4,423 nt of DNA from a virus (IMGVR_UViG_2531839239_000021); one strand, 5' to 3'; shown: positions 1-4,096, counted from the stretch's first letter. Made by a program: numbers and translations. Notes: generated from the letters alone by a model not told the origin.

Positions 1-451
1 CGTTGTCGTAGCTGTCATGCAACACGCTCATGACATCAGACACGGTGACGATAATCACGCTGCGCCCCTTCGCCATCAGCCGGTTACCCATCGCCGCTGC
101 AAGGTGATTTTTCCCGGTGCCGGTTTTACCGCTGAACACAAAATTCGTGCACCCGGTCATCAGTTCGTCAGCTATGGATTTGGCCTGGCTCAGCGCGTAT
201 TTTTGCCCGTCGTTCTGCACCTGATAATTCGCAAACGAGCATTTGCTGTGCAGAGGCTGGATGCCCGAACGATTCAGGATTTTTTCCACCCGCAACTGGT
301 GATTCTGGCGGTTAATCTCCTCGCTGCGTTTTCGTCCTTCAGCAAGTTGCCATTCCCGCCACTCCTCCACCGTCCGGTACGGTGGAACCGACGCCTGTGG
401 TGCAAGTCTGCGAATACGTTCAAGAACCCCGGCTGCCGCAATGTTTTTCAT
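1..451 (-). CDS. DnaC-family replicative helicase loader (phage replication protein, functional analogue of lambda P); N-terminal 150 aa only, 3' end runs off the left edge of the window
   Basis: Minus-strand ATG at 451..449 preceded by AGGGGGTGA (SD-like). Translation MKNIAAAGVLERIRRLAPQ...NFVFSGKTGTGKNHLAAAMGNRLMAKGRSVIIVTVSDVMSVLHDSYDN has a Walker A P-loop GKTGTGKNHLAAA (about nt 110..130) and is collinear with my recollection of E. coli DnaC (FIFSGKPGTGKNHLAAAI...GKSVLIITVADIMSAMKDTF). Not in the ORF track because it has no stop inside the window. The plus-strand ORF 17..886 is its antisense shadow. Confidence 0.85.
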   Translation of the reverse strand, partial: MKNIAAAGVLERIRRLAPQASVPPYRTVEEWREWQLAEGRKRSEEINRQNHQLRVEKILNRSGIQPLHSKCSFANYQVQNDGQKYALSQAKSIADELMTGCTNFVFSGKTGTGKNHLAAAMGNRLMAKGRSVIIVTVSDVMSVLHDSYDN

Positions 452-457
452 GCCACA

Positions 458-1549
458 TCACCCCCTGAATCCCGGCGGAATTTCGGTATCCGGTTCAGAA
501 ATATGATTCACACAACGCTGGTTGTTCGTGCCGCTTACCGGGAGCAACCAGGGGTTTTCAAAATTCCGGTCCGGCCCAAAAAACGTCGTCGCTCGCTGAA
601 CAAATTCCGTTCCCGCTTTCCCGGTCGCCGCCAGGTATCTCGCGTAACGCCTCACACCATCCAGCATGGTCTCTGGTGGCACCCCCTCGCGCAATCTGGC
701 CTTCCAGGCACTGAAAGCGGATTTCTTCGGGTTTGCCCCAGCACGCAACGGGTATTCCCGCCAGACCTGTTCGAACACATCCGGATAATCCACTCGTCCC
801 ACAGACTGCCCGGTGCTTTCCGGGACTACCCGATCGGCTTCCCGCTGAATGGCGGAATCGGCTTCAGGCTGCTGCAGTTGGTGTGATTGCTCCGACCCTG
901 CGGTCATCACCTGCTGCACAGCGCCCGAATCGGCTTCCGGTGTCGTGCCTGCTGGCTGACCAGGATTGACGGTCTGAACATCCCCTGCCTGGTTCGTGGT
1001 GTTTTTTTTGCCATGAACCATAGTGTTTTTGTCCTGTTCCTGTTCTTTCTCCTGCTCCTGTTCCTGTTCTTGGCTTCGAAGCCCCTTAAAAGCCCCTTCG
1101 AAGCCCCTTACCGAATTTCGGCTATTATTCCGCCTCACATCCAGATGGAAATCCGTTTTATATCTGTCGTAAAACACTGACAGAAAAGCGTTTTCAGGTA
1201 ATGATGCATACTCATTCCTGACACCTGCACAACGGTTATCGCCAGGCTTCAACGTTTCCCCAACCTGCCAGGCTGCCATTTCATGGACCCAGACCATCTC
1301 TGCATCATGGTCATAGCTACAAAAACCAGCTTCAACAGCCCTTTTAAGCCCCTTTGAAGCCCCTTCCAGACCAAGCCCGGTTTCATGAGCAAGGTATAAA
1401 ACTGGCAGGTAATACAAACCCAGCATATTTGCGTGAGGGGATGTCATCAGGTAAAAAGCAACAACTTGCGCTTCTGCACCCGCCTTTCTAAGTTCTCTCC
1501 CCGTTTCTCCCAGCCAGAATCGCGGAGAAACTTTTGCGTAATCACGCAT
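458..1549 (-). CDS. Phage replication initiator / replisome organizer (lambda O-like role), about 363 aa; alternative upstream ATG at 1660 would give 400 aa
   Basis: Long minus-strand ORF 458..1660. I prefer ATG 1549 (MRDYAKVSPRFW...) because it is preceded by GATGAGGTAGCC (GAGG, 5-nt spacer), whereas ATG 1660 has no SD. Stop TGA (460..458) lies inside the SD of the downstream DnaC-like gene, implying coupling. It sits immediately upstream of a helicase-loader gene and contains internal DNA repeats like the origin inside lambda O. The C-terminal region (AFSAWKARL...GVRRYARYLAATGKAGTEFVQRATTFFGPDRNF) resembles phage replication-initiator C-terminal domains as I recall them; exact family not verified. 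Confidence 0.8.
   Translation of the reverse strand: MRDYAKVSPRFWLGETGRELRKAGAEAQVVAFYLMTSPHANMLGLYYLPVLYLAHETGLGLEGASKGLKRAVEAGFCSYDHDAEMVWVHEMAAWQVGETLKPGDNRCAGVRNEYASLPENAFLSVFYDRYKTDFHLDVRRNNSRNSVRGFEGAFKGLRSQEQEQEQEKEQEQDKNTMVHGKKNTTNQAGDVQTVNPGQPAGTTPEADSGAVQQVMTAGSEQSHQLQQPEADSAIQREADRVVPESTGQSVGRVDYPDVFEQVWREYPLRAGANPKKSAFSAWKARLREGVPPETMLDGVRRYARYLAATGKAGTEFVQRATTFFGPDRNFENPWLLPVSGTNNQRCVNHISEPDTEIPPGFRG
1033..1068. repeat. Tandem hexamer repeat (CCTGTT-like x6) inside the replication initiator gene, encoding an EQ-rich linker (QEQEQEQEKEQEQ)
   Basis: Plus strand 1033..1068 = CCTGTT CCTGTT CTTTCT CCTGCT CCTGTT CCTGTT. Units are multiples of 3, so the minus-strand reading gives an alternating Glu/Gln low-complexity segment. 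Confidence 0.85.
1076..1110. repeat. Candidate iteron cluster B: three tandem copies of AAGCCCCTT (minus strand AAGGGGCTT), period 11-12 bp
   Basis: Exact AAGCCCCTT at 1078..1086, 1090..1098 and 1101..1109. The 11-12 bp period is not a multiple of 3, so successive copies are read in different frames; conservation is therefore at the DNA level. Confidence 0.6.
1336..1365. repeat. Candidate iteron cluster A: two exact and one degenerate copy of AAGCCCCTT, period 11 bp
   Basis: CAGCCCTTT at 1336..1344 (degenerate), AAGCCCCTT at 1346..1354 and 1357..1365. Same 9-mer as cluster B, about 250 bp away, both inside the replication initiator gene. Confidence 0.6.
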
Positions 1550-1766
1550 GGCTACCTCATCTGGTGCCGAACCTTCCTCCGGATATAATCTGTGGTTCCC
1601 AATCGACAGAACCAGAGGAGGTTCGACATGTATTTTTTGAAAAGCCTTTATCAGGCTCATGTATTAAATGTTGCAGCAACAAACCGCTGGTGTAACAGCC
1701 CCGAAATGCTCCCGGATTACAGAGCCTGGCTGCGCGCCGAAACATACCTTCGTCTCGACATATTGA

Positions 1767-2276
1767 TTAGCGAACTTCAAAAAGAGACTGCATCCATTCA
1801 TAACCTTCAGGGTATCGACGCTGTTCGCATTCTGGTATCGCGCCATAGTGCTCTCTCAATAATTGAAGTGCGTCATCTCTCTTTTTCTGAACTGATTTTC
1901 TTGCTTCAACCAGCTCTGGAATCAGCGAATATCCCGCCGGAAGTGATCCAATACCCACCTCATGTTGACGAGCAGTTACAAGATGTGCCATACAACCAGC
2001 GTGCTGGATTGACTCCCTGCTCAGAGGCTGAATGGGATCACTCTCTGCTGAAGAAATACCAAGATTTGTATAATCCTCAATAAGCCCGGCACACGCTTCT
2101 GCATCAGCCAGCTTTATTCTGGTTTCCTTGCGCTGTTCTCTGGCTGACAAACGCCAGAGCAGCGCATTAGCTTTATGTATCAACCACTCTGCCAGCTCCA
2201 CATCAGATAAACCGCCACGCCAGATGTGCGGACTGTTTTCGTAAACGCTCAGTGTCAATTTTTTGTCATTACTCAT
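1767..2276 (-). CDS. Hypothetical protein, 169 aa, between the YdaT-like gene and the replication initiator
   Basis: Minus-strand ATG at 2276 (MSNDKKLTLSVYENSPHIWRGG...), 13 nt after the YdaT-like stop, with a weak GGGT upstream; the track's GTG at 2327 would overlap the YdaT-like gene by 38 nt. Co-directional with the flanking operon. In the first 60 codons about 64% of first codon positions are purines (33% G), which is gene-like. No family recognised. It competes with antisense plus-strand ORF 1592/1628..2083, so confidence is moderate. Confidence 0.55.
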   Translation of the reverse strand: MSNDKKLTLSVYENSPHIWRGGLSDVELAEWLIHKANALLWRLSAREQRKETRIKLADAEACAGLIEDYTNLGISSAESDPIQPLSRESIQHAGCMAHLVTARQHEVGIGSLPAGYSLIPELVEARKSVQKKRDDALQLLREHYGAIPECEQRRYPEGYEWMQSLFEVR

Positions 2277-2289
2277 ATTTATTACCCAA

Positions 2290-2715
2290 TTAATGCACAG
2301 CCAGAGTGTTTCCTGCCGGGCCACCACGATTCATCTGATCGAACAGAACGATCGCTGATGCAACGAAATCATCAATATCTTTCACCAGCCGTTCCTTCGT
2401 CTCTACCAACTCCCGAAAATAAGCGGAACTGTGGCTGCGCATTCGGGCCACCAGCGGAGGCGGCATCGCTTTTTCGATCGCTGGTAACAACGCCTGAATT
2501 TTTTTAACCGCATCAGGAGTGTCTTTCTCCACCCAGCGGAAAATTTTCTGAGTATTGCGAGCCATGGCTTCCGGATGGCTGTCGTCATACAGTTCCGGGA
2601 ACGTCATTCCCAGCTCGAAATACGCTTTGGTAATTTTCGCAGCCGGTACTTTTTCGCCGTCCGGATGCGCCCAGACATTCATCGCCATGCGGATGTGTTC
2701 ATGCTTGATTTTCAT
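2290..2715 (-). CDS. ydaT: YdaT-like protein (Rac-prophage YdaT family; reported as the CII-equivalent of Rac-type switches), 141 aa
   Basis: Minus-strand ORF MKIKHEHIRMAMNVWAHPDGEKV...NTLAVH. The start ATG shares the 4-nt ATGA overlap with the stop of the upstream YdaS-like gene (2715..2712). The N-terminal MKIKHEHI and the position directly after a ydaS-like gene match my recollection of Rac YdaT; family call from memory, not a search. Confidence 0.65.
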   Translation of the reverse strand: MKIKHEHIRMAMNVWAHPDGEKVPAAKITKAYFELGMTFPELYDDSHPEAMARNTQKIFRWVEKDTPDAVKKIQALLPAIEKAMPPPLVARMRSHSSAYFRELVETKERLVKDIDDFVASAIVLFDQMNRGGPAGNTLAVH

Positions 2716-3014
2716 GAATCAACTCCATCAGATAAGCATGCACTACAATCACCTTCAGCATGAACTACATGTGTTTGCCCCAAACGAATGCCGCTCGCAT
2801 ACTCAGGCCAAATAAGCTCCCAATCATGGGGTCGTAGCTCCGCCCTACTTACTTGGCCTTCCGTCGCAGATTCGATCATAAGGGCGCGGGTTGGAGATAT
2901 AGCTGTTCGTCCAGACGCCATTTGCGATAAGTAAGATGGCGATACACCAAGTCTGGCCGCGAATTTCTTAGCATCACCAACCCTTAATGATTTAATAAAC
3001 TCTTTTAATGTCAT
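2712..3014 (-). CDS. ydaS: Cro-like HTH regulator of the YdaS family, 100 aa
   Basis: Minus-strand ATG at 3014 preceded by CGAGGAAGGT (SD). Translation MTLKEFIKSLRVGDAKKFAARLGVSPSYLSQMASGRTAISPTRALMIESATEGQVSRAELRPHDWELIW... aligns with my recollection of E. coli Rac YdaS (LGVSPPSVNQW...AIERATRGEVLCEELRP). Transcribed divergently from the repressor-like gene, as for cro. Confidence 0.8.
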   Translation of the reverse strand: MTLKEFIKSLRVGDAKKFAARLGVSPSYLSQMASGRTAISPTRALMIESATEGQVSRAELRPHDWELIWPEYASGIRLGQTHVVHAEGDCSACLSDGVDS

Positions 3015-3042
3015 ACCTTCCTCGGTTTAGTGTTTTTTTGCG

Positions 3043-3072
3043 AGTTTAGTGTTTAATAAACCATTAAGTCAA
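3043..3072 (-). promoter_or_regulatory. PR-like leftward promoter for the ydaS-like operon, with an embedded 11-bp palindromic operator
   Basis: Minus-strand -35 TTGACT (plus coordinates 3072..3067), 18-nt spacer, -10 TAAACT (3048..3043). The perfect odd palindrome GTTTAATAAAC (3051..3061) lies in the spacer. Predicted transcript start is about 22 nt upstream of ATG 3014. Confidence 0.55.
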
Positions 3073-3076
3073 GTAT

Positions 3077-3105
3077 TTGCTTGTTTAGTGATTACTAAAG
3101 ATAAT
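3077..3105 (+). promoter_or_regulatory. PRM-like rightward promoter for the repressor-antitoxin-toxin operon; predicts a leaderless mRNA
   Basis: -35 TTGCTT (3077..3082), 17-nt spacer, -10 GATAAT (3100..3105). The spacer holds the near-palindrome TTTAGT-GATT-ACTAAA (3084..3099). The -10 ends 6 nt before ATG 3112, and there is no SD upstream of that ATG. Confidence 0.5.
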
Positions 3106-3111
3106 TACCAC

Positions 3112-3483
3112 ATGCAAAAAAAAGAAATTCGCCGTTTACGTCTCAAGGAGTGGTTTAAAGATAAAACTCTGCCACCCAAAGAGAAGAGCTACCTATCTCA
3201 ACTAATGAGTGGGAGAGCCTCGTTTGGAGAAAAGGCTGCCAGAAGAATAGAGCAAACATACGGGATGCCGGAAGGGTATCTGGATGCGGAATACGCAGAA
3301 CAACCGGGGGGTTCTCCACCACATGCAGGGTTAACGTCTAATCAACTGGAATTATTGCAGATTTTTTCAGCCTTCCCTGAGGATGAGCAACGCCAGATAA
3401 TCAGCGAGTTAAAGCAGAAAAAAGAATCAATGGAAGATCTCATAGCGAGATGGATTGCGGCGCAAAAATGCCGCCGCGCCTGA
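3112..3483 (+). CDS. paaR: HTH transcriptional regulator in the CI-repressor position; first gene of a three-component TA operon (PaaR-like), 123 aa; the track's GTG at 3049 is a possible but less likely start
   Basis: ORF MQKKEIRRLRLKEWFKDKTLPPKEKSYLSQLMSGRASFGEKAARRIEQTYGMPEGYLDAEYAE... Divergent from the cro-like gene and followed within 20 nt by the antitoxin and ParE genes. Contains the motif SYLSQLMSGR, which is also present in the YdaS-like protein. The paaR name is my recollection of the E. coli O157:H7 paaR-paaA-parE systems and is not verified. Confidence 0.7.
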   Translation: MQKKEIRRLRLKEWFKDKTLPPKEKSYLSQLMSGRASFGEKAARRIEQTYGMPEGYLDAEYAEQPGGSPPHAGLTSNQLELLQIFSAFPEDEQRQIISELKQKKESMEDLIARWIAAQKCRRA

Positions 3484-3503: not shown

Positions 3504-3695
3504 ATGAATAGAGCCCTTTCACCAATGGTTTCTGAATTTGAAACCATTGAACAAGAAAACAGTTACAACGAATGGCTGCGTGCGAAAGTAGCAACGAGCC
3601 TTGCAGATCCGCGCCCAGCAATTCCCCATGACGAAGTTGAGCGCAGAATGGCAGAACGCTTTGCTAAGATGCGCAAGGAACGGAGCAAGCAGTAA
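3504..3695 (+). CDS. paaA: Small antitoxin of a ParE-type toxin-antitoxin pair (PaaA-like), 63 aa
   Basis: ATG 3504 preceded by GGAGGA (3495..3500). Translation MNRALSPMVSEFETIEQENSYNEWLRAKVATSLADPRPAIPHDEVERRMAERFAKMRKERSKQ. The TAA stop (3693..3695) is 1 nt before the toxin ATG. Size, charge pattern and position immediately upstream of a ParE-family gene fit an antitoxin. The track ORF 3450..3695 includes an unlikely N-terminal extension. Confidence 0.8.
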   Translation: MNRALSPMVSEFETIEQENSYNEWLRAKVATSLADPRPAIPHDEVERRMAERFAKMRKERSKQ

Positions 3696-3696
3696 A

Positions 3697-3975
3697 ATGT
3701 TACCCGTGTTATGGCTTGAAAGCGCAGATACCGACCTAGATGATATAACTAGTTATATTGCTCGTTTCGACATAGATGCGGCTGAACGCTTATGGCAGCG
3801 ATTAAGGGGTTGTGTGCTGCCGTTATCCGAACATCCGTATTTATACCCACCAAGCGACAGAGTACCTGGCTTGCGTGAGATTGTAGCCCACCCTAACTAT
3901 ATAATTCTATACCGCGTAACAACATCAAGCGTTGAAGTAGTAAACGTGATCCACGCAAGACGCCAGTTTCCCTAA
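3697..3975 (+). CDS. parE: ParE/RelE-superfamily toxin (ParE-like), 92 aa
   Basis: ATG 3697. Translation MLPVLWLESADTDLDDITSYIARFDIDAAERLWQRLRGCVLPLSEHPYLYPPSDRVPGLREIVAHPNYIILYRVTTSSVEVVNVIHARRQFP has the ParE/RelE hallmarks (W..A..DL..I..YI, GLREI, YRV, V.NVIHARR). The track ORF 3601..3975 begins at an upstream ATG inside the antitoxin gene and is not the likely start. Confidence 0.88.
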   Translation: MLPVLWLESADTDLDDITSYIARFDIDAAERLWQRLRGCVLPLSEHPYLYPPSDRVPGLREIVAHPNYIILYRVTTSSVEVVNVIHARRQFP

Positions 3976-3993: not shown

Positions 3994-4039
3994 ACATAAC
4001 AACCGCAACGACTTTATCAAAAGCGTTGTGTTTGTTATG
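3994..4039 (+). terminator. Imperfect 16-bp inverted repeat downstream of the toxin gene; candidate weak terminator or protein-binding site
   Basis: CATAACAACCGCAACG (3994..4009) and CGTTGTGTTTGTTATG (4024..4039) are reverse complements apart from two positions (one a G-U wobble in RNA), with a 14-nt loop. The stem is A/T-rich and no clean U-tract follows, so terminator function is uncertain. Confidence 0.3.
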
Positions 4040-4056
4040 TCCCGCGGTTTAGTTTT

Positions 4057-4096
4057 TACTTGACTTAAGTTTAATGTTTATTAAACTAAAAATACC
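4057..4096 (+). promoter_or_regulatory. PL-like rightward promoter/operator unit, an inverted copy of the PR-like unit at 3041..3075
   Basis: -35 TTGACT (4060..4065), 16-nt spacer, -10 TAAACT (4082..4087). Palindrome GTTTATTAAAC (4076..4086) overlaps the -10. The 12-mer TACTTGACTTAA (4057..4068) is identical to the minus-strand sequence at 3064..3075; GTTTAGT at 4047..4053 and ACTAAA at 4085..4090 echo the half-sites of the 3024..3099 region. Confidence 0.5.

Follow-up and report, generated by a model that had tools for sequence, protein, structure and literature searches.

The best-described counterpart of the region studied here is the paaR2/ydaS region of the cryptic prophage CP-933P (Sp12) in Escherichia coli O157:H7 EDL933, where Jurenas et al. 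(mBio 2021; PMC8630535) analyzed the same 97 bp by 5′ RACE, EMSA, DNase I footprinting, and reporter fusions. Two promoters, PR933P and PRM933P, were predicted there and their starts confirmed by 5′ RACE; the PRM933P start is the paaR2 ATG, and a leaderless mRNA was backed by N-terminal sequencing of the protein (MQKKE) and by mass spectrometry (PMC8630535). The fragment was shifted in several steps by PaaR2 and likewise by YdaS, the PaaR2 footprint ran continuously over ~78 bp and that of YdaS covered 27 plus 32 bp, each protein covered both promoters, and both promoters were repressed by PaaR2 and by YdaS (PMC8630535). At low levels PaaR2 activated PRM and repressed PR and PL, the strongest repression by YdaS was seen at PRM, and mutation of either regulator led to the loss of one of two stable expression states (PMC8630535). 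The footprints overlap, and according to the authors PaaR2 and YdaS compete for common sites (PMC8630535).

The same study described the binding sites in two ways. Four equally spaced 18-bp inverted repeats, IR1 to IR4, share the half-site consensus GTTTAGTAA, the good copies being IR1 over PRM and IR3 over PR, while OR1 to OR3 are three overlapping "pseudosymmetrical" direct units; the authors considered that direct and inverted repeats might both serve in binding (PMC8630535). Beyond parE2 lies PL933P, which has the same -35 and -10 hexamers as PR and comes with another three operators; PaaR2 or YdaS represses it about 100-fold (PMC8630535). A PRE-like promoter between ydaS and ydaT is activated by YdaT (PMC8630535), whose box is defined as TTGATT-N6-AATCAA (PMC9986795).

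We analyzed a 4,423-nucleotide stretch of viral DNA (IMGVR_UViG_2531839239_000021), referred to here as the window, a segment that megablast finds in E. coli lambdoid prophages. Its gene map (Table 1) leaves 97 bp (3015-3111) between the ydaS ATG (3014, minus strand) and the paaR2 ATG (3112, plus strand), and these two flanking genes are followed by those of PaaA2-ParE2 and YdaT. E. coli O157:H7 TR01 matches positions 3005-3125 with 100% identity, the region after parE2 that holds OL and PL is likewise identical, and PaaR2, YdaS, PaaA2, and ParE2 are each 100% identical to the O157:H7 protein. The predicted N-terminus of PaaR2 in the window is MQKKE, as sequenced in the published work (PMC8630535). 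PDB entry 7nkv ("Phage repressor protein CI") is identical to PaaR2 residues 1-66, and entry 8c7k ("Phage antirepressor protein Cro") matches YdaS over residues 1-100 at 1.5e-63; a literature search for papers citing PDB 7nkv, 8c3k, 8c3l, 8c7k, or 8co2 gave none relevant. Judged by sequence and protein identity, the region is the OR of CP-933P itself, and the feature is already known, since the experiments of 2021 used exactly this sequence (PMC8630535). We are highly confident in reading it as the OR of a CP-933P-type lambdoid prophage switch in which PaaR2 and YdaS share one kind of operator and the toxin-antitoxin (TA) pair is a passenger.

Of 5426 complete E. coli genomes, 612 contain the 97-bp region, with at least 99% identity in 511, and many O157:H7 genomes carry it at 100% identity. 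One deposited phage genome, that of Escherichia phage Evi, carries it together with the whole ydaT-ydaS-paaR2-paaA2-parE2 block. Outside OR and OL, the window is a mosaic. YdaT is 86.5% identical to its counterpart in O157:H7 TR01 and 97.9% identical to that in strain KS-NP019, and the replication module and the ECs1072-family gene are KS-NP019-like, not O157:H7-like. In related E. coli loci, dicB, ydfC, and ydfD lie downstream. An ORF at 1767-2276 on the minus strand was rejected as a gene, having no family match and overlapping the ECs1072-family ORF.

Table 1. Genes, promoter elements, and operator sites in the window, with positions counted from its first nucleotide
Feature	Position	Strand	Basis or remark
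DnaC-like loader gene	2-454	-	Family searches
Gene for replication initiator / DnaD-like protein	458-1660	-	Family searches
ECs1072-family gene	1628-2083	+	Family searches; annotated likewise in strain KS-NP019
ydaT (CII-like activator)	2290-2715	-	Pfam YdaT_toxin 1.2e-9; PHROG 163 CII-like activator 4e-45; PDB 8bt1/3c4r 4e-83
YdaT box TTGATTTTCATGAATCAA	2705-2722		Exact TTGATT-N6-AATCAA; covers ydaS stop codon and ydaT start codon; OM operator of PRE933P in published work
ydaS (Cro-like HTH regulator)	2712-3014	-	Pfam YdaS_toxin 3e-12 and HTH_3; 100-aa ORF
Accessory site, only left half-site GTTTAGT	3025-3042		5 of 12 positions mismatch; holds first GTTTAGTG
PR933P -10, TAAACT	3043-3048	-	Promoter scan; overlaps outer arm of 3044-3061 operator
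Strong operator GTTTAGT-GTTT-AATAAAC	3044-3061		0 mismatches to GTTTANTNNNNANTAAAC; over PR; holds second GTTTAGTG
Weak site between strong operators, covering both -35 boxes	3063-3080		6 of 12 positions mismatch
PR933P -35, TTGACT	3067-3072	-	Promoter consensus scan
PRM933P -35, TTGCTT	3077-3082	+	17-bp spacer to GATAAT
Strong operator GTTTAGT-GATT-ACTAAAG	3083-3100		1 mismatch to GTTTANTNNNNANTAAAC; fills PRM spacer; holds third GTTTAGTG
PRM933P -10, GATAAT	3100-3105	+	6 nt, then paaR2 ATG; leaderless mRNA
paaR2 (CI-analogue repressor)	3112-3483	+	PHROG 5736; 123-aa ORF
paaA2 (antitoxin)	3504-3695	+	Pfam PaaA2 1e-19; PDB 3zbe/5cw7 5.5e-37
parE2 (toxin)	3697-3975	+	Pfam ParE_toxin 1.9e-16
OL operator GTTTAGT-TTTT-ACTTGAC	4047-4064		2 mismatches; right arm overlaps PL -35 (4060-4065)
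PL933P promoter (TTGACT, 16 nt, TAAACT)	4060-4087	+	Promoter scan
OL operator GTTTAAT-GTTT-ATTAAAC	4069-4086		0 mismatches; perfect 7-4-7 palindrome; over PL spacer and -10

An initial annotation of this DNA had placed back-to-back promoters in the 97-bp gap with their -35 boxes 4 bp apart, and direct reading of the sequence gives the same picture, with an 18-nt spacer for the leftward PR933P in the consensus scan. PR and PL933P have the same hexamers (TTGACT/TAAACT) in the promoter scan, and each is overlapped by 18-mers. The 5′ RACE that had been suggested as a check is already published on identical DNA, with starts that agree with the proposed promoters, and so is the suggested footprinting, in which both proteins protect both promoters (PMC8630535). 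The expectation of two DNA-binding inputs, for instance a repressor and a Cro-like protein, also holds, as PaaR2 and YdaS both shift and footprint the region (PMC8630535).

All the repeats that had drawn attention to the region, three direct repeats and two palindromes, were recovered by direct reading, and each palindrome lies within or across the spacer of its assigned promoter. Exact copies of GTTTAGTG occupy 3025-3032, 3044-3051, and 3083-3090; GTTTAATAAAC at 3051-3061 is a 5-1-5 palindrome with GTTTA/TAAAC arms and a central A, and TTTAGTGATTACTAAA at 3084-3099 has 6-bp arms (TTTAGT/ACTAAA) around a non-symmetric GATT center. The three copies of GTTTAGTG compare with 0.10 expected, a count of three being reached in none of 200 whole-window shuffles. 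Because the G+C content of the region is only 31%, the 97 bp alone were also shuffled 5000 times. A triple 8-mer arose in 121 of these local shuffles (2.4%), 76 had at least two 7-4-7 palindromes with no more than one mismatch, and 640 (12.8%) contained at least one perfect 5-1-5 palindrome, so the 11-bp palindrome is unremarkable when taken alone. The remarkable element is the repeated half-site family, not the 11-bp palindrome.

The conserved unit to which this half-site belongs is an 18-bp 7-4-7 operator, GTTTAnT-N4-AnTAAAC. Both palindromes fall within copies of it: GTTTAATAAAC consists of the GTTT center of the 3044-3061 operator and its right arm, AATAAAC, and the 16-mer TTTAGTGATTACTAAA is the core of the 3083-3100 operator. 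With up to two mismatches allowed, GTTTANTNNNNANTAAAC has five matches in the window against 0.13 expected, and none of 200 shuffles reached five; four of the five matches fall in the two regulatory regions and one is a stray. Sites at OR start at 3025, 3044, 3063, and 3083, with spacings of 19, 19, and 20 bp and 5, 0, 6, and 1 mismatches, respectively, which puts the two strong sites 39 bp apart and reproduces the published pattern of four equally spaced repeats, two of them good and two without one half. By position, the 3044-3061 operator is probably IR3, the 3083-3100 operator IR1, and the 3025-3042 accessory site IR4, and the 3063-3080 site, with coordinates taken from the spacing, is probably IR2. 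The 3025 and 3063 sites match the 18-mer poorly, so a role for them is argued from how they are spaced and how far the published footprint extends. A further candidate operator inside ydaS (2983-3000, CTTAATGATTTAATAAAC, 3 mismatches) was set aside, its equivalent being absent from homologues in other genera.

The second operator set lies about 1.0 kb from OR, at PL933P, where two further copies of the unit are 22 bp apart (Table 1). Homologues also carry the equivalent of the 4047-4064 site, GTTTAATTTTTACTTTAC/ACTTGAC.

A scan of one genome per species yielded 27 loci with PaaR2 homologues (43-76% identity), and the comparisons drew on 26 distinct homologous OR regions and on 25 loci from other genera; all of these loci share descent, so counts made across them are not independent. 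More than 12 host genera are represented, including Photorhabdus, Xenorhabdus, Arsenophonus, Morganella, Raoultella, Enterobacter, Yersinia, Erwinia, Winslowiella, Massilia, Mycoavidus, and Glomeribacter. A divergent YdaS homologue (49-63% identity) is present at nearly all loci. Five loci (L014, L019, L021, L024, and L028) have no recognizable YdaS, and their divergent ORFs are different or decayed.

The homologues share a near-universal cassette composed of an 18-mer whose arms are perfect or nearly so, GTCAAG, ATTTGCTT, a second 18-mer (GTTTAGnnAtTACTAATC), the -10 box, 6 nt, and ATG. GTCAAG, which is the PR -35 box read backwards, and ATTTGCTT, the PRM -35 box, are nearly invariant, and the distance from the -10 box to the ATG is exactly 6 nt in most homologues. 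Most loci also have one to three further 18-mers located 0.4-1.8 kb downstream and 22-24 bp apart. A matrix built from 104 homologous half-sites returned GTTTAGTAA, which is the published consensus. The equivalent of the 3083-3100 site is kept in most loci with 0-3 mismatches and is poorer in L022, L024, and L031. At the position of the 3044-3061 site, the commonest operator is GTTTATTAAACACTAAAC, exact in six loci, and this is the reverse complement of the sequence in the window; the unit can thus lie in either orientation, which is what recognition by a symmetric dimer would predict. Among the homologues the outer arms are essentially invariant, and the 4 bp at the center differ (AAAC, AAAT, AATT, GAAT, and others).

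The two proteins that meet at these sites resemble each other in the segment that would contact DNA. PaaR2 and YdaS align with 35% identity over 46 residues, a stretch that includes SYLSQxxSGR of the helix-turn-helix. All the PaaR2-like and YdaS-like proteins that were recovered retain S[YF]LSQ. As far as sequence can tell, the data fit the view that PaaR2 and YdaS read one kind of operator with the half-site GTTTA(G/T/A)T, and the SYLSQ motif in both proteins likewise agrees with the overlapping footprints that were published and with the competition proposed from them. PaaR2 matched no Pfam family and does not have the make-up of the lambda CI/LexA-like repressors; its residues 72-119 resemble the DicA C-terminus with an E value of 1.4e-6, a match that falls short of the family cut-off. 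The S24-type self-cleaving peptidase motif is absent from PaaR2, and there was no response to mitomycin C (PMC8630535).

If the inverted 18-mers are one layer of recognition, the direct repeats could be a second, with the GTTTAGTG units (OR1-OR3) read head-to-tail, for example by a PaaR2 octamer, and the palindromes left to dimeric YdaS. The authors raised this possibility themselves, and the continuous PaaR2 footprint of ~78 bp would suit it (PMC8630535), as would a 24-nt direct repeat (TTTGCGAGTTTAGTGTTTAATAAA and TTTGCTTGTTTAGTGATTACTAAA, 83% identity) and the five-copy families of 14-nt repeats. The homologues speak against it, since none of the 26 distinct regions contains two or more copies of GTTTAGTG, the equivalent of the 3025 half-site is absent from the homologous loci of other genera, and the flanking bases by which the direct repeat is lengthened show no conservation. 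The triple repeat, the 3025 half-site, and the 24-nt repeat were seen only in near-identical E. coli copies. In addition, the inversion of 3044-3061 relative to the homologues shows that an operator can be turned around, and we consider a separate direct-repeat code unlikely. E. coli NCTC9112, a more distant variant, has ATTTAGA near the position of the 3025 half-site.

From the different appearance of the palindromes, the initial annotation had concluded that there are two operator types, and on that reading one regulator would recognize the 11-bp GTTTAATAAAC and the other the 16-bp TTTAGTGATTACTAAA. It is true that the two differ in arm length and spacing and sit in different promoters, and that YdaS leaves two separate footprints, with a preference for PRM where PaaR2 has one for PR (PMC8630535). 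The internal 5-1-5 palindrome also recurs in 11 of the 26 distinct regions, and for that reason it is not purely an accident of the window. However, in the other 15 regions the center changes and the 11-bp palindrome is lost with the outer arms kept, and a perfect 5-1-5 palindrome is readily produced by local shuffling at the rate given above. Both sites fit the conserved 7-4-7 frame, with 0 and 1 mismatches, and the two proteins, which have a recognition-helix motif in common, compete and leave overlapping footprints, each of them on both promoters (PMC8630535). Two operator classes are therefore very improbable, and this part of the annotation is not supported.

Autoregulation by the TA pair, layered on the switch, had also been proposed, so that one of the palindromes would be the operator of the PaaA2-ParE2 complex. 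In classical type II TA operons, autoregulation acts through palindromes located in the operon's promoter (PMC8630535), and paaA2 and parE2 are co-transcribed from PRM. Such an arrangement would be expected to show a DNA-binding domain in the antitoxin and operators that travel with the TA genes, and neither was found. The only Pfam match of PaaA2 (63 aa) is the PaaA2 family itself (PF21217, residues 16-45), and the protein is reported to be devoid of DNA-binding motifs (PMC8630535). Neither paaA2 nor parE2 is present in any of the 25 loci from other genera, yet all 25 keep the operators, and we regard a TA operator here as extremely unlikely. As for the repeats being chance products of an AT-rich spacer, the low G+C content and the local shuffle rates for the triple 8-mer and the 5-1-5 palindrome lend this some color, but the half-site recurs at OL 1 kb away, keeps its place relative to the promoters across more than 12 genera, and lies under the published footprints (PMC8630535), so that the probability of this reading is practically nil.

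Under the preferred reading, one operator kind contested by PaaR2 and YdaS, the switch works as follows. Two sigma-70 promoters fire back to back, PR933P leftward into ydaS (the cro analogue), ydaT (the cII analogue), and the replication genes, and PRM933P rightward, where the transcript begins with the A of the paaR2 start codon and is a leaderless mRNA for paaR2, paaA2, and parE2. Binding at 3044-3061 would occlude the PR -10 box, since TAAACT is the outer operator arm plus one T, and binding at 3083-3100 would occupy the whole PRM spacer. The logic at PL would be alike, with the right arm of 4047-4064 overlapping the -35 box and 4069-4086 overlapping the -10 box. PaaR2 shuts PR preferentially, and PL too through 4047-4086, and at a low level stimulates PRM; YdaS shuts PRM preferentially, and the contest for shared sites makes the locus bistable. 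The TA pair would be a passenger of the repressor operon, at the place of rexAB in lambda, and would not read the operators.

Some finer points of this scheme are drawn by analogy. The center of the 3063-3080 weak site is at -40.5 from the PRM start, the position of lambda CI at OR2, which makes it a candidate PRM-activating site; PaaR2 spreading cooperatively from 3044-3061 onto 3063-3080 could explain PRM activation at low PaaR2. PaaR2 octamers may also loop OR to OL over the ~1.0 kb between them, which the authors likewise suggested by analogy (PMC8630535). The order in which the two proteins fill the sites, at base-pair resolution, and what the weak sites contribute are points that we infer.

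The comparison makes some minor additions to the published work, namely that one operator type accounts for both "different" palindromes, that the direct repeats were seen only in near-identical E. coli copies, that the leaderless design extends across genera, and that the operators are independent of the TA genes. More tentatively, the 18-mers, together with the leaderless start, the SYLSQ recognition helices, and the two -35 boxes fused as GTCAAGTATTTGCTT, could reflect one near-invariant immunity specificity across at least 12 genera of Gamma- and Betaproteobacteria, a possibility that we consider doubtful. If it were true, repressors of prophages in unrelated hosts would cross-repress and form an unusually broad homo-immune group, and the CP-933P lineage would be a derived variant with its PR operator inverted and an extra upstream half-site. 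Inversion and extra half-site together would then have created the triple direct repeat and might alter the cooperativity of the PaaR2 octamer.

Set against known systems, the locus agrees with CP-933P in the 97 bp, OL/PL, the four proteins, the promoters, the leaderless paaR2, and the consensus, all as described for the paaR2/ydaS region (PMC8630535), and nothing in the finding itself differs. The Rac racR/ydaS region of E. coli K-12 has the same gene order, with a repressor gene, divergent ydaS-ydaT, and then replication genes. Rac has an almost identical YdaT box, and the YdaT proteins of Rac and CP-933P cross-react. Identity to the CP-933P proteins is only 26% for Rac YdaS and 31% for Rac YdaT (PMC8630535). 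Rac YdaT also binds the intergenic region, where CP-933P apparently has no YdaT sites, and no TA pair follows the Rac repressor. Compared with DicA/DicC of Qin, paaR2 occupies the dicA position (PMC8630535) and the PaaR2 C-terminus is DicA-like, but the DicA model does not match the N-terminal DNA-binding domain of PaaR2.

The likeness to lambda OR/OL is one of design. As in a lambda-type switch, divergent promoters (PR and PRM) are overlapped by shared operators and a second cluster sits at a PL-type promoter on the far side of the repressor operon. A repressor and a Cro protein probably act on common sites, with opposite preference, the repressor mRNA is leaderless, and passenger genes follow the repressor gene where lambda has rexAB. 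Lambda OR consists of three 17-bp pseudo-palindromes, 23-24 bp apart. Here, in contrast, the units are 18-bp 7-4-7 operators, the two strong ones separated by 39 bp and the weak ones spaced at 19-20 bp. The match of YdaS to P22_Cro does not reach the threshold, and PaaR2 is without sequence similarity to lambda CI according to the authors of the CP-933P study (PMC8630535). The region works like lambda OR/OL and is not homologous to it, and its biological interest lies in a lambda-like bistable switch made from unrelated proteins, with a TA pair riding on the repressor operon. The comparison of homologous loci narrows the question raised by the authors, which sequences PaaR2 and YdaS read.

The window is a mosaic of a CP-933P immunity core and a different early-right arm, since E. 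coli O157:H7 strain TR01 lacks the ECs1072-family gene and carries a replication module that differs from the one found here, and the window's YdaT, the CII-like activator, is closer to that of strain KS-NP019 (97.9% identity) than to that of TR01 (86.5%). The counterpart of the ECs1072-family gene in KS-NP019 is likewise annotated as belonging to this family. The block running from ydaT and ydaS through OR, paaR2, paaA2 and parE2 to OL was also found, with ~98% identity to the window, in a deposited phage genome of 40 kb, that of Escherichia phage Evi (LR597642.1, 21700-26860), where parE2 is present without annotation. Therefore, the PaaR2/YdaS switch is not restricted to cryptic prophages.

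Features located in the window, with coordinates from the whole stretch
Feature	Position	Strand	Description
ECs1072-family phage-associated gene	1628-2083	+	between ydaT and the replication genes, orientation opposite to both
YdaT box TTGATTTTCATGAATCAA	2705-2722		perfect; covers both the stop codon of ydaS and the start codon of ydaT
Operator-like sequence CTTAATGATTTAATAAAC	2983-3000		within the first codons of ydaS; 3 mismatches
Strong hairpin	3994-4040		shortly after parE2 and shortly before OL/PL

The YdaT box is the same sequence as the published OM operator at PRE933P (PMC9986795). The operator-like sequence inside ydaS pairs with 3048-3068 as a 21-nt inverted repeat and lies ~42 bp from the accessory half-site at 3025; because homologues from other genera have no equivalent, its occurrence may be due to chance. 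Downstream of parE2, the hairpin has 22-nt arms with 82% complementarity and a folding energy of -24 kcal/mol (z = -4.07), and none of 200 shuffled sequences folded equally well. It is probably a terminator or a 3′ stabilizer of the paaR2-paaA2-parE2 transcript, and in this position it would shield PL from read-through.

At the Photorhabdus and Xenorhabdus loci (L003-L009, L015 and L016, at ~1925-2000), ~55-60 nt of leader separate the conserved PRM-like promoter from the repressor ATG, with tandem repeats within or ahead of this leader in L009 and L015. The gap before the repressor ATG is 6 nt at the other loci, which implies a leaderless repressor mRNA. Residues 72-119 of PaaR2 (3325-3470) are similar to the C-terminal end of DicA, the repressor of the Qin prophage, a match to NF007257 that falls below the family cut-off (E = 1.4e-6), and the N-terminal DNA-binding part showed no likeness to DicA in the same comparison. 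The C-terminal part is presumably involved in oligomerization.

Inside the replication-initiator gene (458-1660), AAGCCCCTT repeats spaced by 11 bp form two clusters (1073-1114 and 1329-1381), which are 256 bp apart and inverted relative to each other, and the stretch at 1023-1075 codes for a low-complexity QEQEQEQEKEQEQ linker. The clusters resemble the iterons of a phage replication origin located within the initiator gene, a placement similar to that of the origin iterons within lambda O.
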